Positions 17,110 through 27,416 of a DNA stretch of 64,000 nucleotides are shown here, piece after piece. Positions within the stretch are counted from its first letter, which is position 1. Every line of letters starts with the position of its first letter. Below the pieces are notes generated by a model. That model was not told where the DNA came from, ran no database searches, and saw only the letters and a list, made by a program, of their open reading frames with translations. A program made the position numbers and the translations under genes. This DNA comes from a virus, in IMG/VR virus record IMGVR_UViG_3300010885_050098, positions 1 to 64,000 of that record. The stretch is one strand, 5' to 3'.

Positions 17110-17125
17110 TCGAACACCTGTTCGA
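17110..17125. promoter_or_regulatory. Actinobacterial LexA (SOS) box
   Basis: TCGAAC-ACCT-GTTCGA, exact match to TCGAAC-N4-GTTCGA. Confidence 0.8.
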
Positions 17126-17135
17126 ATAACTATCT

Positions 17136-17176
17136 TGCAAACTCTATTGACCCGACCCTATGCGCTCGCGTATGTT
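17136..17176 (+). promoter_or_regulatory. Cassette promoter 1
   Basis: TGCAAACTCTA-TTGACC-N18-TATGTT. Confidence 0.75.
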
Positions 17177-17221
17177 TCTCCTATCGCACACAAGTGCGAA
17201 CGAACCGCAAAGGGGCTGTAT

Positions 17222-17395
17222 ATGACACGCAAGGACTTCGAGTTAATCGCTCAAGTAATCAAAGCACAACGCAAGCCACACAATGACACCGCAACACTCG
17301 ACGAATTAACTCGCGAGTTTGCCTACGCACTAGCCGACACTAACCCACGCTTCGACACTCACCGCTTCATCGAGGCTTGCAAGGTGAGCGCATGA
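17222..17395 (+). CDS. Small early hypothetical protein
   Basis: MTRKDFELIAQVI...LADTNPRFDTHRFIEAC, a common phage family; RBS AAGGGGCTGT. Confidence 0.8.
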   Translation: MTRKDFELIAQVIKAQRKPHNDTATLDELTREFAYALADTNPRFDTHRFIEACKVSA

Positions 17396-17577
17396 AACTC
17401 AACCGACGAGGCGAGCGCGTTCTCGCGTTCTACATATTCTTCACAATGGCGCTGTTCGCTGGCGTTCTAGTAATGGGGGCAAACTTCCTACTTACTCATC
17501 ACCAAGTAATCGACCAATCAACCTGCCACCAAACGGAGGACGGGTTGTCTTGCAAATGGAATTGGGAGGCAAAATGA
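17392..17577 (+). CDS. Small membrane protein
   Basis: MKLNRRGERV followed by one TM helix. Confidence 0.65.
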   Translation: MKLNRRGERVLAFYIFFTMALFAGVLVMGANFLLTHHQVIDQSTCHQTEDGLSCKWNWEAK

Positions 17578-17918
17578 CACAAGGAACCGAATTCAGAAAG
17601 GCGCAAGCCGAAGCACTAGCCAACCGCACCGCGTGTTGGATATGCAAGAACTACTTCGACCGCAAGGCAGGCGAGATGTCCTATCTCCTCGCTTATGTAT
17701 TCGTCGGCAAAGTGGGAACTCTTGAACAAGAGATAACCGCTTACAACTTCGACAAGGTAGAAGACACTCGCAAGCCCGTCTTCGAGAAGCAATCTCACCT
17801 TGTCTGTAATCTGTGCGAGGAGAACCATGTTCTCGCCTACGCTGTGGAGAATATCTACCCTAACGGCGGATACCACTCAACTCGCAAAGCAACCGACCTT
17901 CTATGGGATGAGGCGTAA
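17574..17918 (+). CDS. Hypothetical zinc-binding protein
   Basis: CWIC...CNLC; RBS GGAGG. Confidence 0.65.
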   Translation: MTQGTEFRKAQAEALANRTACWICKNYFDRKAGEMSYLLAYVFVGKVGTLEQEITAYNFDKVEDTRKPVFEKQSHLVCNLCEENHVLAYAVENIYPNGGYHSTRKATDLLWDEA

Positions 17919-18181
17919 TGAAACGCGAGGACTTAGAGAAAATGATTCACTTCATGGCTGGCGGAGTAGAAACCGCAGACGAGATCAAATTCGTAGATAA
18001 ACACCTCGAAGGCTTTAACACCTTCCTACTGGATATGACTACTCACCGATTGGTTCAAGCTGGGATTGAGCTCGAGGAAGCTCAGTCCATGCTGCAAGGC
18101 CTGGTTCAAGTGAGCCGCATGCTCGGAGCTTCTCAGTTCCAAGAGTTCGTGCAGTTTCATCAAATCGTAGACCAAATATAA
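17918..18181 (+). CDS. Hypothetical protein
   Basis: Coupled TAATG start; followed by a terminator. Confidence 0.65.
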   Translation: MKREDLEKMIHFMAGGVETADEIKFVDKHLEGFNTFLLDMTTHRLVQAGIELEEAQSMLQGLVQVSRMLGASQFQEFVQFHQIVDQI

Positions 18182-18187
18182 ATAGAA

Positions 18188-18222
18188 GGGCGTCCGCTGA
18201 TCCTGGCGGGCGCTCTTTTTTT
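18188..18222 (+). terminator. Intrinsic terminator
   Basis: GGGCGTCCGC-TGATCCTG-GCGGGCGCTC followed by a T tract. Confidence 0.8.
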
Positions 18223-18408
18223 ATGCGCCGCGCCGGGGCGCCAAATGTTTGTGTTGGAACCCGCCCTCCCTGTTCCTAATCCCTAAAGGGAAGGGGGAGA
18301 GACGCCGGGCAGAAATTGGTCTGCAAACTCTATTGAATATGTCGGTGGTAGATGATTGAGTTCTCTCATGGCAAGCAACAAGGCAAGCCATTATAGATTG
18401 GGGCTGTT

Positions 18409-18879
18409 ATGGGTCTTGATATGTATCTCCACGCTAAGAAGTATGTTAGCGGTTGGTCGCATGAGAAGGATACGAGCGAGTACCAAAGACTACGCGCTCT
18501 TTATCCTGAAGTCGAGATTGACGAGGGTTCTCCTTCGATTGAACTCGTCTTTACTGTTGGGTATTGGCGCAAGGCTAATGCCATTCATAGTTGGTTCGTT
18601 CAGAATGTCCAAGAAGGGCAAGATGATTGCAAGCCGTACTATGTTGAACCAACCGACTTAATGAAGTTGAAGGAAGCATGCAGTTTGGAACTTCTAGTTC
18701 CTGCTGGTGGTGCTGGTGGTGGTGTTCTTGAACCTACTGCTGGTTTCTTTTTTGGTAATGCCGAACGCGACGATTGGTATTACGAAAATCTTAATCGCAC
18801 AATTCAGATTGTGGATAAGTGCCTAGCACTTCCGCAAGACGGCTGGCATTGGTCTTTCGAATATCAGTCTAGTTGGTAA
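18409..18879 (+). CDS. Conserved phage early protein (MGLDMY...YWRKANAIH...GFFFG family)
   Basis: Recognisable widespread phage family of unknown function. Confidence 0.8.
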   Translation: MGLDMYLHAKKYVSGWSHEKDTSEYQRLRALYPEVEIDEGSPSIELVFTVGYWRKANAIHSWFVQNVQEGQDDCKPYYVEPTDLMKLKEACSLELLVPAGGAGGGVLEPTAGFFFGNAERDDWYYENLNRTIQIVDKCLALPQDGWHWSFEYQSSW

Positions 18880-18921
18880 TCCGTCGAAGGGAAGCGCCTC
18901 AGAAATGGGGCGCTTTTCTTT

Positions 18922-18961
18922 TGCAAACTCTATTGTATTTATTCAGTAGATGATTTAAGTT
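18922..18961 (+). promoter_or_regulatory. Cassette promoter fused to the upstream terminator
   Basis: Hairpin 18889-18918, then TGCAAACTCTA-TTGTAT-N17-TAAGTT. Confidence 0.75.
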
Positions 18962-19007
18962 TCTCTTATCAGCGCAAGTCGCGTTGATATTTTCTTAGGG
19001 GGTTAGC

Positions 19008-19259
19008 ATGGCAAACGATTTTTGGAATAAGTATTACGGCTCTTTCGTTGGAGCAAAGATTGTGAAGTTCGTTGGCATGAATACTGAGGACGATATGGGA
19101 GATGGTTTCCCTGAGTTCGAAGTCAAGTTCGCAGATGGCGAGATTGGGATTATCTCTATCTCACAAGACCCTGAAGGTAATGGTGGCGGATTTATATTCG
19201 GCTTAGCATTACCACAAGACCACCCACAAGGTGGGGAAGTGAGGACACTCAATGCCTAG
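19008..19259 (+). CDS. Hypothetical protein
   Basis: SQDPEGNGGGFIF motif, a common phage family. Confidence 0.75.
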   Translation: MANDFWNKYYGSFVGAKIVKFVGMNTEDDMGDGFPEFEVKFADGEIGIISISQDPEGNGGGFIFGLALPQDHPQGGEVRTLNA

Positions 19260-19440
19260 ATTAGAAATCGGTGACAAGTATGTCACTCAGAAGTCGGGTG
19301 TCGAAGGGATTATCCTTGAGATAGTCCCGAACGATACTGGATCCGTTCGCTTGCGGTTGGTAACACCTGCCCTTGAAACTCGTTGGACAACCTATGTCCC
19401 CGAGCGATTGGGACAAGTAAAGGTTTCATCAGCCCCCTGA
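19252..19440 (+). CDS. Small SH3/KOW-like protein, paralog of 37216..37419
   Basis: GDKYVTQKSGVEGIILEIVPNDTGSVRLRL...RWTTYVP. Confidence 0.75.
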   Translation: MPRLEIGDKYVTQKSGVEGIILEIVPNDTGSVRLRLVTPALETRWTTYVPERLGQVKVSSAP

Positions 19441-19445
19441 TTGAA

Positions 19446-19474
19446 AACTCCTGAGCATGAGTTAAAAGTGCTCA
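19446..19474 (+). ncRNA. Candidate H-type pseudoknot (copy 2)
   Basis: AACUC-C-UGAGCA-U-GAGUU-AAAAG-UGCUCA. Confidence 0.5.
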
Positions 19475-19601
19475 ACCAAAAAGCTCGTGGATCCTGGCAC
19501 CGCGCCGGGAGCTGCGAGCTTTTTTGTTTGTGTTGAGACCCACCCTCCCTGTCTCTGACTTACTTCGTAAGGGAGTTGTTGGAGAGATGCCGGGCGCAAG
19601 C

Positions 19602-19617
19602 TCGAACAGATGTTCGA
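19602..19617. promoter_or_regulatory. Actinobacterial LexA (SOS) box
   Basis: TCGAAC-AGAT-GTTCGA, exact match. Confidence 0.8.
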
Positions 19618-19627
19618 AAAAATAGTT

Positions 19628-19667
19628 TGCAAACTCTATTGAAAGTAGGAGAGCGAGCGCATAATGT
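19628..19667 (+). promoter_or_regulatory. Cassette promoter
   Basis: TGCAAACTCTA-TTGAAA-N17-TAATGT. Confidence 0.8.
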
Positions 19668-19711
19668 TCTACCTATCAGCGCAAGGTGCGTTGATTGAAA
19701 GGGGCTGTAAA

Positions 19712-20167
19712 GTGCTAACGAATAAACAAGCACTTCAGGCTTATACGGAAATCGTAGAAGCCTACGCAAGCAACGAACCCTTGCCGACTACTTCGGTGAA
19801 TATGTTCGTTGAAAGTATCAAAGACTTACAAGTCCGCGATTATCTCCTAGGTCATGCTCCAACGACCTTCGGTGCTCAGGGTGCGATTGAATTCGTAACC
19901 TCTATCCTTCCGCTAGTAGATGAGGGCGCTCGCGCTCCCTTCTACACTGTATTGTCTGCCTTCTATTATGAGGCTGGCGATAGCGAACTCGCGTTCGTAT
20001 CATTAGTTCAAGCACAATTGCTTGACCCACAATATGCTCTAGCAAAATTGTTTGAGCGTGTTTACAAGGCTGGTTGGCCAGCCACCGCACTCGCGCAATT
20101 GCGCGTTGAACTTCACCCAAAGGTTGCAGAAACCTTTGAGGTTGAAACCGAGTTGGAGTTCGCGTAA
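19712..20167 (+). CDS. DUF4192-like protein
   Basis: LQVRDYLL...RAPFYTVLS...GDSELA...DPQYALAKL...GWP; GTG 19712 after AAGGGGCTGT. Confidence 0.65.
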   Translation: MLTNKQALQAYTEIVEAYASNEPLPTTSVNMFVESIKDLQVRDYLLGHAPTTFGAQGAIEFVTSILPLVDEGARAPFYTVLSAFYYEAGDSELAFVSLVQAQLLDPQYALAKLFERVYKAGWPATALAQLRVELHPKVAETFEVETELEFA

Positions 20168-20456
20168 CTTCAGCCCCGAAGCCCCTCGGCAGAAATGCCG
20201 GGGGGCTTTTTTAATTTCCGGATCCTGGCGCCGGCAGCTGAGATCCAGGCAGCTGTTTTTTTAGGGCGCCAAATAATATTTCCCGATGCCTAATGTTTGT
20301 GTTGGACAGCCCTCCCACCCTGTCTAACCCTTTCAGGGAATTAGGAGGAGAGAGTTGCCCAGGAATAGTTCGCAAACTCTATTTACAAGTGGGTGCGCTG
20401 CGTGGGAGAGTTCATCTGTTGGAGAAGCCAAGTATCCGACAAGAAGGGCTGTTGAT

Positions 20457-20873
20457 ATGGCTAGGGCTATGTCTGTGAAAGTGCCAACCGCAAAAGTAAT
20501 TGCCGCGTTGGAAGCAAGACTCGTAAAGACTCAAACCGAGTGGGACAATCGGGGCGAGGCTGAAGCAAAGTTCCAAGATGAACACAAGGCTTGGAGTGAA
20601 GAAATGAAGAAGTGGGCTGTTGCTCGCATCTCTAAAGCAGAGAATCTTCGTGCTAATTATCGTTCGTGGAGTAATCAAGTCAATATCGACTTTGACCTCT
20701 CTACCAAAGATGGGGACTTCCCTATCGAGCCAAATCGCGAACACGAAAGTCGTGCGGAGTGGCAAGTCAAGGCTGAGGTTGAGGAAATCACCAACGCTCT
20801 AAATATCTTGCGTATGACTGACGAGGAATATGTAAATGCCTCGACTATGAAGTCAATCTCGCAATATCTATAA
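20457..20873 (+). CDS. Hypothetical early protein
   Basis: ATG 20457 after AAGGGCTGT, downstream of a cassette promoter. Confidence 0.75.
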   Translation: MARAMSVKVPTAKVIAALEARLVKTQTEWDNRGEAEAKFQDEHKAWSEEMKKWAVARISKAENLRANYRSWSNQVNIDFDLSTKDGDFPIEPNREHESRAEWQVKAEVEEITNALNILRMTDEEYVNASTMKSISQYL

Positions 20874-21174
20874 GTAATCGAAACAGGGGCAGTTTGCGGG
20901 AGTTCTAGCCCAATGTCGTAAGTAAGAACCCGCACCTAGCAAGCGGCAGGGCCTGGGGCAACCCGGGCTCTGTCTGCCGCTGCCCAGGATCCAAGCGGCG
21001 CGGATCGCGCAAATGTTTGTGTTGGCCCTCCCACCCCGTTTATAGGGAGTATGTATGTAAGAGAGACTCAGCTGCCCGGTGGATCCTGGCAAAACTAGTC
21101 TGCAAACTCTATTTACACGAGCACGGCCAGCATGAGAGAGTTCGCCTACACCTCACGAAAGGGGCTGTTTACAT

Positions 21175-21717
21175 ATGGGTTATTACATTGACCTAACTGA
21201 TGCCGATTGGGAAATTCCCGAAACCGCAGAAGTGCTAGAGGCGTTGAAAGAAATGCCTACCAAATATCACGCCATTAAACGTGGCGGTTCATCTAATGGA
21301 GAATCTTGGTTCTCATGGATGAGCGACGAAAGTATCCTCAACGCAGAGAGTGCGGAGAGAATATTCAACGACCTAGGGTTCGAGACTACGTCAACCGACG
21401 GTAGTTTTAAACTCGATGGTTACTCCAGCAAAACGGGCCAAGAAGATTTATTCTTGGCGGTCGTTGCCCCATTCTGCAAAACAGGTTCATACGTGGAATT
21501 CCGCGGTGAAGATGGAGCCGAATGGCAATACTCAGTACGTGATGGTGTCATGCAATATTCAGAAGTTGCTCGTCACTTTCCCGAACCGCATCCGTGGCGC
21601 TACTCCCACTTCCAATTCGATGACGGTAAGACTCAGTCTTTCGCAATCGATATCACAAAACCTCTTCCAGAAGGGGTCCATAACGGCCACGATAAATACA
21701 TCAAGGCCACAGTTTAA
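21175..21717 (+). CDS. Conserved phage hypothetical protein
   Basis: MGYY...APFCKTGSYVEFRGEDGAEW family. Confidence 0.75.
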   Translation: MGYYIDLTDADWEIPETAEVLEALKEMPTKYHAIKRGGSSNGESWFSWMSDESILNAESAERIFNDLGFETTSTDGSFKLDGYSSKTGQEDLFLAVVAPFCKTGSYVEFRGEDGAEWQYSVRDGVMQYSEVARHFPEPHPWRYSHFQFDDGKTQSFAIDITKPLPEGVHNGHDKYIKATV

Positions 21718-21886
21718 AAGCTGAAAAAGCTGAATGCTCTCACCGGGATCACCCTAGCGGATCCTGGTGGGAGCTTTTTTTATTTAATAAATATCCCAAA
21801 GAGGGGAGGGTGGGCCGACACAAACATCTGGCTTTGGGTAATAAAGGCAAACGGAGCCCTCGGAGAGAGAGCGCGAAAAAATTCTT

Positions 21887-21926
21887 TGCAAACTCTATTT
21901 ACACGGAGAGACTGAGCACGTAATGT
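21887..21926 (+). promoter_or_regulatory. Cassette promoter
   Basis: TGCAAACTCTA-TTTACA-N17-TAATGT. Confidence 0.8.
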
Positions 21927-21967
21927 TCTCCTTGTAAGCGGAAGTACCGATTACAGAAGGGCTGAAA

Positions 21968-22213
21968 ATGCGTTCTCTAAGAGAGATTGCAATTGAAATT
22001 GAAAGAGAGTGTGCTGATAAGCAATGGTATTACTATGCCGAAGCCTACGTCACTCCAATGAAGTCGCTTGAATCGCTGAGCGAGCGCTACTACGAAGATA
22101 GTGCTGAATCTATCGTCATGTATGCACTTGCTAATCTCACCTCATGGCGGGGTGATACAGCTCGCCGAATCAAGGCCGAGCTCAACGCAATGCTGAAGGG
22201 GGTAAGCGCATGA
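21968..22213 (+). CDS. Conserved phage hypothetical protein
   Basis: YYEDSAESIVMYALANLTSWRGDTARRIKAEL family. Confidence 0.8.
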   Translation: MRSLREIAIEIERECADKQWYYYAEAYVTPMKSLESLSERYYEDSAESIVMYALANLTSWRGDTARRIKAELNAMLKGVSA

Positions 22214-22584
22214 GCGAATTAACCACGCTCAGCTGCACCGAGCTTATAGCTCGTATCGAATCACTTGAGAATGGCATAACTAACTATAGTCGCCAGCTCT
22301 CACGTATTACCGAAGGCCTAACCGCCGATAGTTGGTACCGCTCTGAGGTGGAAAAATCCACCGTGCTATCAGAGCTCTGCGAGATCCTGGGTGTTCAACC
22401 TACTCAGACCGTCTCCATCACCGCAACCCTTACGGTTTGCATGTCACACGAAGTGCCGCTCGATGAGCTGGAAGACTTCGATGCAGACCAATTGGTCTCA
22501 GACCAACTTTCTATCGATGTCTACGGTGGAGATACCACCCTCGACGATTGGTCGGTAGAGAGCGCTGATTGGGAAGAGCAATGA
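22210..22584 (+). CDS. Acidic hypothetical protein
   Basis: ATGA coupling; D/E-rich C-terminus. Confidence 0.7.
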   Translation: MSELTTLSCTELIARIESLENGITNYSRQLSRITEGLTADSWYRSEVEKSTVLSELCEILGVQPTQTVSITATLTVCMSHEVPLDELEDFDADQLVSDQLSIDVYGGDTTLDDWSVESADWEEQ

Positions 22585-22817
22585 ACGTAGCTCCATCCCA
22601 AGACCTCATGACTCGCTTCAAGGTTCAGGCGGCCATCACGGCCGCTTGGACTGAGTATGGCGAGCTGTACGAAGCTGAAGAGGCCGGTGGCTTCTCCGAC
22701 GCTATGGAATCGATGGAGAGAAAATATGCAGAAGGTGTAGCTGAAGGGCTCAGCTCTGCATACTTCATGATTTATAACGAATCGTTCCCACCATCGGAGG
22801 ATGAAAGTGCCATATAA
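22581..22817 (+). CDS. Acidic hypothetical protein
   Basis: ATGA coupling. Confidence 0.65.
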   Translation: MNVAPSQDLMTRFKVQAAITAAWTEYGELYEAEEAGGFSDAMESMERKYAEGVAEGLSSAYFMIYNESFPPSEDESAI

Positions 22818-23094
22818 CCCAAGAGCTGAAAGAGAAGCGGCGATCCTGGCATACACGGATGAAGACCGGGATGCGATGGACGATACCAACCCGGTTACTC
22901 ATGCAGAGACTGGCCCTAACCGATTCCATCTCATGTCTCTATTCTTCTCAGATACTGACGGTGTTCAGATTCAAGAGGATATGGAGCTCAATGAGATAAC
23001 CGTTACCTACTTCAATGACGCATTAGTTAGCGAGGAGATTACGGAAGGCCCGATGTATGACTGGGCCATCGAGCAATACAACGGCTGGATTTAA
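22801..23094 (+). CDS. Acidic hypothetical protein
   Basis: ORF followed by a terminator at 23098-23130. Confidence 0.6.
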   Translation: MKVPYNPRAEREAAILAYTDEDRDAMDDTNPVTHAETGPNRFHLMSLFFSDTDGVQIQEDMELNEITVTYFNDALVSEEITEGPMYDWAIEQYNGWI

Positions 23095-23207
23095 ACGAGG
23101 CCCCTGCTGCGCTTGCGCGGTGGGGGTTTTGCCATGCCCGAAATGTTTGTGTTGAAGCCCACCCTCCCTCATTATGGGAAATATATATAAAGAGAGATCC
23201 CTGGCCG

Positions 23208-23223
23208 TGTGACGTAGCTCACA
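23208..23223. promoter_or_regulatory. CRP/GlxR-type site
   Basis: TGTGA-CGTAGC-TCACA, exact TGTGA-N6-TCACA. Confidence 0.7.
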
Positions 23224-23301
23224 AGAGAGAGTCTGCAGACTCTATATACATTCGACGGTTGACGTGTCAATATACGGTTAGCAATAAAAGAAAGGGCTGT
23301 C

Positions 23302-24000
23302 ATGAAATTAAAACGTAGTAAGGACCGCAAGGTTGCGAATTCACTCACCGCGGGTGGAAACGTACGTATTGCGAATTCTTTCGGGCTACCGTCCGGGAGA
23401 GAGTACTCATGTCCGGGCGCCACTAGTATATGCGAACGCATATGTTATGCGGGCAAGCTTGAGAAGCTATATCCAGGCGTTAGAGAGAATCTCACACACA
23501 ATTGGGATTTACTTAAGAATGCAGACCATGACACTATGGAGAATCTCCTAATGGAGATGATCGAGGAATTCAAGGCCGAATGCGATAAGTGGAATGCGCC
23601 TAAGTCATTCCGTATCCATTGGGACGGGGATTTCTTTAATGGTGAGTACGCATTCGCGTGGAAACACGTCATCCTTAATAACCCGGATGTTAAATTTTGG
23701 GTATACACACGGGTAGAATCGGCCGCGTACATGCTTAAGGGCATGGAGAATCTTTCTCTCTATTTCTCCGGAGATAGCGAGAATTTCGAGGCCGCAGCAC
23801 GGTTGAAAGAGCACGGGATATTAATCGCTAGTCTCGATGAGACTTTCGATCGGGCCCGTGGAGCGCTTAAACTTATTGGAGAGAAGTCTGCAATATGCCC
23901 TGAGCAACGTAAGCAAATACCTCTAAACGGAGCCTGCATTGCATGCGGGATTTGCGTAGAGGGTAAAGTCAATATATCGTTCTCGATATCTAAGAAATAA
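23302..24000 (+). CDS. GP88-family protein (radical-SAM-like Cys motif)
   Basis: SFGLPSG..SCPGATSICERICYA, FRIHWDGDFF, FWVYTR, C-terminal CP..CIACGIC. Confidence 0.8.
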   Translation: MKLKRSKDRKVANSLTAGGNVRIANSFGLPSGREYSCPGATSICERICYAGKLEKLYPGVRENLTHNWDLLKNADHDTMENLLMEMIEEFKAECDKWNAPKSFRIHWDGDFFNGEYAFAWKHVILNNPDVKFWVYTRVESAAYMLKGMENLSLYFSGDSENFEAAARLKEHGILIASLDETFDRARGALKLIGEKSAICPEQRKQIPLNGACIACGICVEGKVNISFSISKK

Positions 24001-24009
24001 GGAGCAAGA

Positions 24010-24285
24010 ATGGGATCAACACTAGCAAGAGAGCTAGCGGGAGGAGATTTGGGCTTAGATCTACGGGCCCAGATCACCATCCAGCTACGTAGTAATCATT
24101 ACCCACCGGTACCGTATGAGATGGTGGATCCATGCATGGATGCCATCGTGGCATATAACGATGGAGACACCGATCTATTGATCGCGCTACCATCGCCGAT
24201 TAAGTGGAAAGGCCAGGATCACGCACCGGCCTATGCAATAATTGAGTCGCATCACCTTAATGATTGGATCTCATATGAAGAGTAA
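24010..24285 (+). CDS. Conserved actinophage hypothetical protein
   Basis: QLRSNHYPPVP...CMDAI...APAYAIIESHHL. Confidence 0.75.
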   Translation: MGSTLARELAGGDLGLDLRAQITIQLRSNHYPPVPYEMVDPCMDAIVAYNDGDTDLLIALPSPIKWKGQDHAPAYAIIESHHLNDWISYEE

Positions 24286-24633
24286 CCTGCAGATTAAGCT
24301 TGATGCGGCCGCTAAGGCCCTAGAGCCCATCCTATGGGAGACATTGGATGAGATTGATGAAGAATGAATTTCAAGAGCTGATGGATCGGGTCCTTAAGGA
24401 GGGGCTCGATCGCATCGATCAGCTAACTGAAGAAGAGTTGCTCTCCTAACGGATCGAGCATCACGGCGTCCATCCCCACACAGCCCGGGGTTGGGCGCCT
24501 TTTCTTTTGGCGAGCGCCCATTTATTGTTTGGTTGTTTGCCTACACCCATATTTCCAAATGTTTGTGTTGACCCACCCTCCCCTTATCCCTTCGGGATAG
24601 GGTAAGAGAGACATCGATGTCAATAGAGTCTGC

Positions 24634-24649
24634 TGTGATGGCCATCACA
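24634..24649. promoter_or_regulatory. CRP/GlxR-type site next to an inverted promoter motif
   Basis: TGTGA-TGGCCA-TCACA perfect palindrome abutting minus-strand GCAGACTCTATTGACA (24618-24633). Confidence 0.65.
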
Positions 24650-24849
24650 TGGAGAGAGTTGAGTCGGATCGACTCAAGTTTTATGAGCCGGAATGAGCAA
24701 TCTCGAAGAGAGAGAGAGGATCGAAGATCCTGGCACATTCATGCAGAGAGAGAGAGAAGAGAGAGAGGCATGCAAGCTCCGAAGGAGCTGGCTAGGCTAC
24801 TGTCTCAGCATGCGAGACGATGAGCAGTCGTGCCACCAGGTCAAATGCT

Positions 24850-24865
24850 TGTTTCACGTGAAACT
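24850..24865. other. parS: parS centromere-like site
   Basis: TGTTTCACGTGAAACT: exact 14-bp core GTTTCACGTGAAAC, 15/16 match to TGTTTCACGTGAAACA, in a gene-poor stretch. Confidence 0.75.
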
Positions 24866-25036
24866 ATGCGTATATCTTCGATATTGCATATATCTTTGAT
24901 CGCCATCTCAGGCTGTGGAGAGATTAAGGAAGCAGAGATAAGTAATTGGATATCTATCTCTCTTATATCTCTCTCTTGAATATGCTCTCTCTAATTAAAA
25001 CAAGGAAATGTAAAGGGCCGTATTTCCACAGGGCGC

Positions 25037-25104
25037 TGTGTTGTAAGTCACATGGTAAATGTATGCAAACTCACTTGCGCTAGATACTAGCTGAGGAGTA
25101 GGTT
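25037..25104 (+). promoter_or_regulatory. Variant cassette promoter with CRP-like site
   Basis: TGTGT-N6-TCACA (25037-25052), TGCAAACTCAC-TTGCGC-N18-TAGGTT. Confidence 0.6.
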
Positions 25105-25134
25105 GGCCTCCTAAGCCAAACAAGGGAGAAAACT

Positions 25135-25383
25135 ATGGCTATAGATGCTAGAGAGAAAGTCCTATTGGATCTTCTTGAGAAAGGCTATGTACCCGGTATC
25201 AATGGTGAAGGCAGTGCAACATTAACCGTTAAGGGCTTTGTTGGTGCCAATATTGTCGCTGCTCGGGTTGCTCTACGAGAGTTACCTCGTCCATTGAGTG
25301 AGCAAGATATTGTTGAAATTATCGAGTTCCTGCAAACGGCAGAATCCTCACTAACTTACCTAACTGATCCTGAGGATGACTAA
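25135..25383 (+). CDS. Hypothetical protein
   Basis: RBS AGGGAG. Confidence 0.65.
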   Translation: MAIDAREKVLLDLLEKGYVPGINGEGSATLTVKGFVGANIVAARVALRELPRPLSEQDIVEIIEFLQTAESSLTYLTDPEDD

Positions 25384-25751
25384 TGGCTTGGTGGATGAAT
25401 TATATGAATACCACAATGGTATGTATTAACGGCTGTGGTGTATCGCGTTCATACGTCGGAGAAGAATTTGAATTAGCGGAATCATGTCCACAATGTAAAA
25501 AAGAAATGGAAGGGTTACGCATCCTAAAGAAGGGGATTACAAATGACACACAATGAATTAATAGAGGCTGTAAATAGTCCAACGTATATGAGTAGTAGAA
25601 CTTTAGAGCATCCGTATATTGCACTTCGTGCAGTGTTGGAAATACACGCTCCTTTTGAAAGCGGTGTATGCGGATGTGAAATTGATAATCCAGTTCTTTC
25701 TTACATGTATCCATGTGCAACCGTTCGCGCTATTGAAAAGGAGTTGTCAAT

Positions 25752-26042
25752 ATGACAATAAACACATATGAAAAACTAAGACCAATTGCGGATGTATGGG
25801 CGTGGCAACATAAAGGAAACTGCGTTGGTAAAAACACTGAATTGTTCTTTTTAGAAACAAGTGTCCGAGGGCCAAATAAAACTAGACAAGAAAACGAAGC
25901 AAAGGCAATTTGTAAAGGTTGCCCAGTTAAAAATGAATGTTTAAACCACGCTTTAACTACTCCTGAATACTACGGTGTATGGGGCGGTTTAAGCGCCGAT
26001 GAACGTTCTTTTTATAGCGCAAACCGAAGGGAAATTGCATGA
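25752..26042 (+). CDS. whiB: WhiB-family transcription factor
   Basis: WQHKGNC...FF...AKAICKGCPVKNECL...GVWGGLSADER. Confidence 0.95.
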   Translation: MTINTYEKLRPIADVWAWQHKGNCVGKNTELFFLETSVRGPNKTRQENEAKAICKGCPVKNECLNHALTTPEYYGVWGGLSADERSFYSANRREIA

Positions 26043-26908
26043 AAGCAGTATCGTTATTTGCAGGTGTAGGCGGGTTTGATCTCGCACTAGAACGAGCTGG
26101 TGTAACTGTTGTTGCATCATGTGAAATTGATAAGTACGCACAAAAGGTGTTGGCACAACACTTTCCTAATTCAACAATAATCAACGATGTAAAGGATGTA
26201 ACAGGTGATCAACTTAAACAACTCGGATTCGACGGTAGTGACGGAATTATTGTCGGAGGATTTCCATGCCAAGACTTGTCCGTTGCGGGAAAGCGAGCAG
26301 GACTCGCTGGATCTAGGTCAGGACTCTTCTGGGAAATCTGTCGCATCCTCGACGAAACGAAAGCGAAGTGGTTCGTCCTCGAAAACGTCCCCGGTTTGCT
26401 GTCATCTAACGACGGACGAGATATGGGAACCGTCATCCAAGCGTTGGTTGAGCGCGGGTACGGGGTCAGTTACAGGATTTTGGACGCTCAGTACTTCGGA
26501 GTCGCCCAAAGACGTCGCAGAGTCTTCATTGTCGGATGTCTTGGAGATGACGGGCGAGCATCTGCAGAAGTACTCGCTCTCGTTGAAGGCATGCGAGGGC
26601 ATCTTGAGACGAGCAACACGAAGAGGGAAAAAACTTCCCGAGGCTCTTCATCAAGCACTGGAGAATCAGACAAGAAAATAGCACGCATGCGTGGCTTTGG
26701 TGACTACGAGTTAGATCATAAAGCAGGCGCATTAAAAGCACGTGATTGGAAAGATGCTACCGATCTTGTGTATCCCGAAGGAAATGTAGGAACTATAACT
26801 ACAGCCTTTGGCGCAAAGAACTATTCAAATCACCAAGAACTCATGGAAGGAAGCGTGGTTGTATATGACGAACTGGTTCGTGAAAAGTCGCAGAGCGCAA
26901 AACGTTGA
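26039..26908 (+). CDS. C5 DNA cytosine methyltransferase, N-terminal part (motifs I-VIII plus part of the TRD)
   Basis: SLFAGVGG, GGFPCQD, ENVPG, QRRRRVF; lacks motifs IX-X. Confidence 0.9.
   Translation: MKAVSLFAGVGGFDLALERAGVTVVASCEIDKYAQKVLAQHFPNSTIINDVKDVTGDQLKQLGFDGSDGIIVGGFPCQDLSVAGKRAGLAGSRSGLFWEICRILDETKAKWFVLENVPGLLSSNDGRDMGTVIQALVERGYGVSYRILDAQYFGVAQRRRRVFIVGCLGDDGRASAEVLALVEGMRGHLETSNTKREKTSRGSSSSTGESDKKIARMRGFGDYELDHKAGALKARDWKDATDLVYPEGNVGTITTAFGAKNYSNHQELMEGSVVVYDELVREKSQSAKR
26205..26681 (+). CDS. Overprinted +1-frame methyltransferase-associated polypeptide (M.EcoHK31I beta-like)
   Basis: AAAGGA 8 nt before GTG; SSLSDVLE...KYSLSLKACEGILRRATRRGKKLPEALHQAL. Confidence 0.7.
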   Translation: MINLNNSDSTVVTELLSEDFHAKTCPLRESEQDSLDLGQDSSGKSVASSTKRKRSGSSSKTSPVCCHLTTDEIWEPSSKRWLSAGTGSVTGFWTLSTSESPKDVAESSLSDVLEMTGEHLQKYSLSLKACEGILRRATRRGKKLPEALHQALENQTRK

Positions 26909-27416
26909 TGACTTTGAAACATGGGTTGAGGGGGCGGTTACTCCTACATTGAACGCATTCGAAAACAATGGTGATACTCGCGCCACAGTTCTTATCTTCT
27001 ACGGCAATCGTGTTGATGATATAAGAATGCAAGGCGCCGTAATCAATACATTACAAGCCCGCATGGGCACAGGTGGAAACAACATGCCTATGGTGGCAGT
27101 TACAGAACAGGATCAAGATATGGCACAAGCAGGTAACTTTGAGTTGTATGACTTTCCCAAGGAAGAAGTTGCTCCAAGTCTTAACGCTCTTCGTGCTAAA
27201 GACACACTTACATACGAAGAAGGAACTGTTGTAAGGCGGTTAACTCCACGTGAGTGCGAGCGCCTACAAGGATTCCCCGATGATTGGACTGCATCACAGT
27301 CTGATTCACAACGATATAAGCAAATGGGTAATGCTGTTGCAGTGCCTGTTGTTCAATGGATAATAAGTGGATTGGTGGAAGTAAATGCAAGACTTAATGA
27401 AGAATCTAAAGGATAA
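26865..27416 (+). CDS. C5 methyltransferase C-terminal part (TRD repeats plus motifs IX-X)
   Basis: VRRLTPRECERLQGFPDDW, RYKQMGNAVAVPVVQWI. Confidence 0.85.
   Translation: MTNWFVKSRRAQNVDDFETWVEGAVTPTLNAFENNGDTRATVLIFYGNRVDDIRMQGAVINTLQARMGTGGNNMPMVAVTEQDQDMAQAGNFELYDFPKEEVAPSLNALRAKDTLTYEEGTVVRRLTPRECERLQGFPDDWTASQSDSQRYKQMGNAVAVPVVQWIISGLVEVNARLNEESKG

Follow-up and report, generated by a model that had tools for sequence, protein, structure and literature searches.

The 64,000-base stretch analysed here, hereafter the window, is the first 64 kb of the 76,357-base IMG/VR record IMGVR_UViG_3300010885_050098, and between positions 17110 and 25104 it carries an array of about ten expression cassettes whose promoters share a repeated core and are in part preceded by palindromic boxes of the LexA type (TCGAAC-N4-GTTCGA) and of the Crp type (TGTGA-N6-TCACA). 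Conserved and functional in appearance, these boxes are most simply interpreted as binding places of the LexA and Crp proteins of the host, an assignment drawn from sequence comparison towards which we lean, with no great confidence. The LexA-type boxes would most likely tie two promoters, P1 at the array entry and P4 in front of a DUF4192 gene, to the SOS state of the host, and the Crp-type boxes would most likely be sites of an upstream activator, which in this phage appear to have been replaced at most promoters by a newer promoter module with a UP-like A-tract and a better -35 hexamer.

Architecture of the promoter array

The octamer GCARACTC is found 19 times in the window, where 3.8 matches are expected, and in the array its G lies on the plus strand at 17137, 18323, 18923, 19629, 20372, 21102, 21888, 23235 and 25065 (P1 to P8 and P10), with a minus-strand copy at 24626-24633 (P9). 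A longer form of the core, GCAAACTCTATT, has seven copies in the whole 76-kb record, every one of them in the array; the copy at 25065 lacks the TA. When the nine plus-strand copies are aligned, conservation starts about 11 base pairs (bp) 5' of the core, with the consensus AAAAATAGTTT, and the complete promoter module consists of 11 A-rich bp, GCAAACTCTA, a TTGACA-like hexamer, a spacer of 17-18 bp, a TAnGTT-like -10 hexamer and then TCTC. The hexamer located 10 bp after the core G agrees with TTGACA at a mean of 4.33 of six positions against a background of 3.02, and the start of transcription is predicted about 46 bp after the same G. The cassettes follow the order terminator, GTTTGTGTTG/hairpin/GAGAGA element, operator zone, promoter module, leader hairpin and common ribosome-binding sequence. 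Upstream of most core copies lie a terminator and a conserved element formed by AAATGTTTGTGTTG, a C-rich hairpin and GAGAGA, as seen between terminator and promoter at 18243-18310 on the plus strand; further copies of the AAATGTTTGTGTTG element start at 19526, 20291, 21011, 23141 and 24557 on the same strand, and one occupies 21816-21829 on the minus strand. On the 3' side of the module a small leader hairpin is followed by the common AAGGGGCTGT, which stands ahead of the first start codon in each cassette (at 17210-17221, for instance) in a placement that recalls the start-associated sequences of cluster K mycobacteriophages.

Relatives of the phage were collected in two ways, through the GP88-family protein (ten loci) and through the GTTTGTGTTG..CCCNCCC element (at least 119 IMG/VR stretches), and they form one large family which includes several complete records of 96-98 kb with terminal repeats. 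The cassette plan is common to all members of the family, and the promoter core varies by lineage. An exact-core scan of viral contigs returned about 100 single matches, apparently due to chance, and L056, with two or three core copies, was set aside as these lie inside coding-looking sequence.

Within the array of this phage, P1 (17126-17176) carries the 11-bp A-rich extension and GCAAACTCTA followed by TTGACC, 18 bp and TATGTT. The alignment places P2 at 18312-18362, P3, which comes directly after a terminator and without the GTTTGTGTTG element, at 18912-18961, P5 at 20361-20412 and P6 at 21091-21142 (both with TTTACA), and P7 at 21877-21926 (TTTACA, 17 bp, TAATGT), where the upstream GTTTGTGTTG element is inverted. 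The DUF4192 gene at 19712-20167 is headed by P4 (19618-19667; TTGAAA, 17 bp, TAATGT), the gene at 23302-24000, which matches the Pfam family GP88, by P8 (23224-23273; core GCAGACTCTA, TATACA, CAATAT) and the whiB operon by P10 (25053-25104; core GCAAACTCAC, TTGCGC, TAGGTT), all nine being on the plus strand. P9 (24618-24633, minus strand) combines the inverted core with TTGACA and points left, into the last of the hairpin elements and towards a two-way terminator near 24483-24496 (24480-24633 of the window, minus strand). From there it could yield an RNA of about 100-130 nucleotides antisense to the GTTTGTGTTG/CCCACCC element of every other cassette. The same inverted arrangement is kept in L108 and L109, and in L155 and L119 with each lineage's own core.

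Other ways of reading the core were considered. Extracytoplasmic function (ECF)-type and sigma-54-type readings were dropped upon inspection, the spacing to any GTT or GC element being unfit. Likewise, TAGTYT in the 11-bp extension, taken as the -10 hexamer of a second, LexA-covered promoter, was dropped as the leading interpretation because the hexamer is missing in relatives. The PafBC-type shape (TGTCGGTG, 8 bp and TAnnnT replacing the -35) fits P2 only, where an exact TGTCGGTG, 8 bp and TTGAGT stand at 18340-18361, in the spacer; the record holds two copies of this 8-mer, that of P2 being the sole one within a promoter, and the other eight promoter copies show 2-5 mismatches to it. The PafBC shape (RecA-independent promoter, RecA-NDp) is also found at several promoters of the relatives L155 and L158. 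Metatranscriptome contigs matching the array (eight from X12 at 100% identity; those from X20 are a relative's) cover its coding parts only and are uninformative on starts, strand or transcription, and an X20 contig end lying 4 bp from the predicted P4 start was not counted as evidence.

LexA-type and Crp-type boxes

Exact LexA-type boxes occur twice in the window against 0.00 expected, and both belong to the array: TCGAACACCTGTTCGA at 17110-17125 in front of P1, and TCGAACAGATGTTCGA at 19602-19617 in front of P4. Each also has the A (position 7) and the T (position 10) of the extended form seen in host boxes. Each ends 11 bp 5' of the core, with its centre at about -65 from the predicted start, and has no overlap with the core promoter; LexA bound at this place would be expected to hinder an upstream contact, made by an activator or by the alpha C-terminal domain, and not the polymerase core itself. 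Whole-record searches showed that each phage has one or two LexA-type boxes, always at the array. The second box is kept before the DUF4192-gene orthologs of L218 and L219, and with 15 of 16 positions in L109, with flanks and hairpins that differ. In these three relatives the same promoter also has a Crp-type box, which the LexA box precedes by 7-8 bp, and the LexA and Crp sites are consequently stacked and not alternatives to each other. The P1 box adjoins, at the array entry, a boundary module (TTAAGGG..GGGGGGG) that is conserved and is flanked by a LexA-type box in six lineages (among them those of the relatives L155, L168, L169, L171 and L192) and by Crp-type boxes in some lineages, e.g. 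in L160 and L109 at the entry promoter. The DnaA-box-like words TTATCCACA/TGTGGATAA flank the same module in L128, L133 and L216, and also in L120, L184 and L229.

Exact Crp-type boxes are likewise found twice in the window, against 0.08 expected, and both in the array: TGTGACGTAGCTCACA at 23208-23223, 11 bp 5' of the P8 core, and TGTGATGGCCATCACA at 24634-24649, which abuts the inverted core of P9 with a gap of 0, the usual layout of the family. A third box (25037-25052), 12 bp 5' of the P10 core, matches nine of the ten positions, and its ortholog in L109 is an exact box abutting the core. These elements had been pointed out by a first-pass annotation made from the letters alone, and the core GCA(A/G)ACTC was found at all ten places that it named, the hexamer downstream does resemble a -35 and the LexA and CRP boxes are where it had put them, with exact pairs far above chance. 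Its observation that the spacing is near-constant also holds, the gaps between box end and core G being 11, 11, 11 and 12 bp (0 for the inverted copy) and not the 10-11 bp that it had given.

Across the family the Crp-type box is a regular part of the early promoter. In most relatives it abuts almost every early promoter, with its centre at about -54 from the predicted start and a poor -35 hexamer. In L171, L158, L160, L219 and L109, TGTGA-N6-TCACA keeps a fixed offset at nearly every promoter (9/9 in L171), right at the lineage core or a few bp ahead of it, and at 71 of the 183 distinct hairpin-element instances in related stretches a Crp-type box with no more than one mismatch comes next. 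All 11 exact boxes of G002 fall within 7 kb, and the three of the complete G001 are all in the array; the reversed control pattern gave no match. Among 82 distinct boxes the N6 spacer is variable and the half-sites hold, together with a symmetric preference for Y6/R11 that was no part of the search pattern. The box of P8 has an ortholog that abuts the core before the same GP88-family gene in L219, L109, L171 and L158. The -35 region agrees with TTGACA at 2.0-3.3 positions in four box-bearing relatives and at 4.0 in L160, to be compared with the mean of this phage and the background given above. DNA contigs of other lake samples say nothing on box variation because they break at the intergenic repeats.

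Candidate readers of the boxes

Six-frame searches of the record and of three complete relatives recognized no Crp helix-turn-helix, cyclic nucleotide-binding (cNMP), LexA, HTH_3 or sigma region 4 domain, and WhiB was the sole regulator named when 30 proteins from the array and from its flanks were scanned with Pfam and PHROGs. Candidate hosts, reached through a match of the ribonucleotide reductase, belong to one order of streamlined Actinomycetota with genomes of 1.2-2.2 Mb. All 31 of the genomes searched hold 1-4 exact SOS boxes, and the control pattern gave no match in the 27 in which it was counted; in G013 the boxes precede lexA and a DUF6504/dnaE2 cassette, and both LexA-type 16-mers of the phage are found among the SOS boxes of these organisms. 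A Crp of 227-230 amino acids is encoded in 13/13 genomes (E = 1e-78 to Crp of Mycobacterium tuberculosis), with a recognition helix identical to that of the M. tuberculosis protein. The match of the phage boxes to the actinobacterial LexA and Crp consensus, already noticed in the first reading, extends to candidate hosts which use the same SOS box and possess a matching Crp.

The scarcity of such sites in the candidate hosts, where each genome has just 1-4 exact SOS boxes and no more than one perfect Crp box, may also suggest that the boxes are decoys with which replicating phage DNA soaks up LexA and Crp and reprograms the host, since phage sites multiplied by replication would outnumber the few host sites; in addition, relatives carry up to 11 perfect Crp-type boxes. 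We consider this improbable, as a sponge needs neither phase nor gene linkage, and the boxes of relatives keep a fixed offset and helical phase to their promoters and are tied to particular genes; moreover, the boxes of this phage number just two of the LexA type and three of the Crp type.

Several observations weigh against host LexA and Crp as the readers. The candidate hosts stand in for the phage's own host, and exact TGTGA-N6-TCACA (only exact matches were counted) occurs in two of the 13 genomes, a number that does not exceed that of the control pattern. The box centres, at about -54.5 (gap 0) and -65.5 (gap 11) from predicted starts, are not textbook Crp positions, and a LexA site at -65 or farther upstream is atypical for repression. 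Other operators occupy the position of the Crp box in part of the family: ATAAC-N6-GTTAT in L155 and L119, CGTTAY repeats with an 11-bp period, direct or inverted, in L172 and L125, and palindromes of about 30 bp with ATTCTAGCCAAC (ATTCTA) in L192; two complete relatives are devoid of any Crp-type box. Both the alternative operators and the box-less relatives fit readers that are lineage-specific and possibly phage-encoded. The promoter cores also differ by lineage, which is unexpected if they are read only by the main sigma factor of the host. Finally, P1 alone passes a strict sigma-70 scan, and the assignment of the -10 is for this reason provisional; the -10-like hexamers are odd, and several of them have no A at the second position.

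In the main alternative, the palindromes would be read by regulators that the phage itself encodes and whose fold is unrecognized, in the manner of the repeated operators of Streptomyces phage phiC31 or of the stoperators of mycobacteriophage L5, their likeness to Crp and LexA sites being coincidence or mimicry. Such a reader would account for near-consensus copies at virtually every early promoter of a lineage, for different operators that take the same position, partly with the same 5-N6-5 geometry, in other lineages, for the variation of promoter cores and for candidate-host genomes nearly devoid of perfect Crp boxes. We nonetheless judge it unlikely, because of the negative domain and profile searches described above, because the LexA-type boxes are identical to host SOS boxes and because the TGTGA box is unchanged from lineage to lineage in spite of the divergence of their cores. 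Its presence at the entry promoter too, in L160 and L109, argues against an activator made by the phage. Host LexA and host Crp are retained here as the probable binders.

Promoter turnover and a proposed origin of the apparent slot

In order to understand how the boxes of this phage relate to those of the family, promoters before orthologous genes were compared base by base with those of L219. At P4, P6 and P7 the Crp-type box of L219 is missing, and its position is taken by an A-rich stretch of 11-12 bp that belongs to the module. P8 retains the orthologous box, with an 11-bp stretch inserted between box and core, and that of P10 is likewise displaced, by 12 bp with respect to L109; the P6 ortholog of L109 already has the order box, 11 bp, core. 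A displacement of this size corresponds to one helical turn and shifts the box centre from about -54.5 to about -65.5 relative to the predicted start. Altogether, the newer module (11 A-rich bp, core and better -35) has taken the place of the Crp-type box at six or seven promoters, and at two, P8 and P10, it has left the box standing one helical turn further upstream. We infer that the ancestral early promoter of the family depends on an upstream activator, and that this phage has largely swapped such dependence for a UP-like A-tract and a real -35.

The first-pass annotation had proposed a fixed, swappable slot, filled with LexA or CRP sites, in a standard promoter chassis. This proposal is partly supported, as evolutionary turnover at a junction of modules, but a designed slot is not upheld by the comparison, the 11-bp offset being the edge of a homogenized module that reaches 11 bp 5' of the core; what looks like a slot would be the junction of this newer module with older upstream sequence. 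Exchange itself survives in another form, as equivalent positions hold different types of site across lineages, which implies that inputs have been exchanged in evolution, but LexA and Crp are not alternative fillings of one place. Conservation in related phages, which it had put forward as a test, is seen in that the boxes recur, with the differences that LexA and Crp sites stand in tandem and that the Crp box is a family default mostly lost here. The quasi-palindrome GCCCGG-N5-CCTGGC upstream of P6, at 21074-21090, does exist, but its supposed occupancy of the slot was withdrawn because the counterpart stretch of L219 precedes a Crp-type box, and it is better described as conserved upstream sequence.

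Gene order differs between the two phages, the P3 cassette lying after P4 and P5 in L219, and the P2 hairpin of this phage is the P4 hairpin of L219, showing that hairpins, boxes and genes have been re-assorted. Together with the homogenization of the promoter module within each genome and the precedent of the promoter early stem-loop (PeSL) cassettes (PMC2839356, PMC4122927), this could mean that the repeats are mainly recombination points that shuffle early cassettes, the boxes being passengers of little regulatory effect. That the boxes are mere passengers seems quite improbable to us, since in passengers one would expect neither half-sites that hold against drifting spacers and flanks, nor a lasting link to one gene in different lineages, nor a shift of exactly one helical turn; besides, shuffling and regulation are compatible with each other. 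A broader hypothesis is that global regulators of the host drive the entire early programme of the family, with Crp as the default obligatory activator of every early promoter, LexA as an SOS input at two fixed promoters, and the Crp input swapped in whole lineages for other host regulators or, in this phage, for a UP-like element and a real -35, the chassis being rewired by cassette recombination. We put this forward only tentatively and regard it as doubtful in its full extent, and the more limited assignment of the boxes to host LexA and Crp remains the one that we favor.

Genomic context and neighboring features

The record, estimated by CheckV to be 79% complete, encodes a baseplate, DNA polymerase I, a helicase, a ribonucleotide reductase and a DpdA-like protein, and genes on the plus strand at 17.2-28.3 kb are flanked by minus-strand blocks. 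The record is read as an uncultured freshwater actinophage, and the array as part of its early-gene region. DNA near-identical to the record is present in freshwater metagenomes of several studies, and a Megablast search of the stretch against deposited phages gave no match. An actinobacterial host is suggested by the WhiB and GP88 genes, by polA, whose best relatives are in Streptomyces phages such as BRock (about 40% identity), and by the ribonucleotide reductase, whose best relatives are in Micrococcales (61-64%). The product of the whiB gene (25752-26042) is a true WhiB (E = 4e-23). It is encoded in the P10 operon (25037-26042 of the window), whose promoter keeps a Crp-type box, and whiB1 of M. 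tuberculosis is controlled by Crp.

Some further features were recorded in and around the array. The parS-like palindrome TGTTTCACGTGAAAC lies at 24850-24864, in a gene-poor panel at 24.45-25.1 kb, and the same word is present in the matching panel of L108, L109 and L169. Downstream of whiB a C5 cytosine methylase (26039-27416) is split across two overlapping frames, the open reading frame at 26039-26908 covering profile positions 1-169 and that at 26808-27416 positions 269-320, which could reflect a frameshift, an insertion or a two-part enzyme. The word GATCCTGGC, which holds CCTGG, is repeated about eight times, mostly in or near the terminators of the array. A segment of about 55 bases (20876-20929), just past the stop of the gene at 20457-20873, has a read depth far above its surroundings, 777 against about 12 in one DNA run and about 70 in an RNA run; its loose ends differ on both sides, some of them entering the core of another lineage (ATGTCAGACC, as in L116), and it looks like a short element common to several abundant phages. 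An Rfam scan gave only tRNAs and weak terminator-like matches.

Significance and comparison with known systems

A literature search found no paper describing such cassettes in actinophages. If host Crp and LexA do read the boxes, infection by abundant lake phages of streamlined actinobacteria would depend on the cyclic AMP and DNA-damage state of the host, and host physiology would be connected, in a concrete and testable manner, with how well phages do in nature. In addition, the family offers a natural series of promoter variants, in which the box abuts the core, lies one helical turn farther off, has given way to an A-tract with a better -35, or is exchanged for other operators. Such a series suits the study of how actinobacterial transcription is activated from upstream, and regulatory parts could be drawn from it.

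Repeated operators are familiar from actinophages. The conserved inverted repeats (CIR) of phiC31 and the stoperators of L5 are present in many copies among early intergenic regions, near repeated promoters, and are read by a phage repressor. The array resembles them in that one operator is repeated beside repeated early promoters, but differs in that no phage-encoded repressor was recognized in the record and the complete relatives.

Regarding LexA, the two phage 16-mers are identical to boxes found before lexA and dnaE2 in streamlined freshwater Actinomycetota, and a LexA-controlled phage promoter with host SOS boxes is known in P1 of GIL01 (PMC4551915). In contrast to GIL01 and to LexA operators in general, the boxes of this phage lie clear of the core promoter, at a distance of about 65 bp or more from the predicted start on its 5' side; no LexA co-factor or homologue of the phage was recognized, and the parts of the record that were read gave no sign of lysogeny control. 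With the sites of Crp/GlxR (M. tuberculosis Crp, PDB 3d0s and 3mzh) the Crp-type boxes share the exact consensus, the Crp of the candidate hosts having the same recognition helix, and their upstream position might fit activation. The boxes depart from such sites in their predicted centres, at about -54 and -65 and not at the classic -41.5 or -61.5, and perfect copies are far denser on the phage than in the candidate hosts.

Marine cyanomyoviruses carry multiple sites for NtcA, a regulator of the Crp family, and are thought to exploit in this way the stress response of the host (PMC3037559). The presence of several sites of a host-global-regulator type on a phage genome is common to both cases; the regulator and the host phylum differ, and many lineages of the family described here have the site built into nearly every early promoter, at a fixed offset. 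The closest parallel in overall plan is given by the PeSL cassettes of T4-type phages, in which a stem-loop and an early promoter are repeated between small genes (PMC2839356, PMC4122927). Likewise, a composite of terminator or stem-loop and early promoter is here repeated between the small genes of a plastic region, and the repeats coincide with cassettes that are re-ordered and swapped between relatives, as judged from gene order and from the hairpin and box combinations of L219. The two systems differ in host phylum, promoter sequence and hairpin element, and the present array adds operators of a host-regulator type, which have not been described for PeSLs. The idea of mobile regulatory cassettes would be extended to actinophages.

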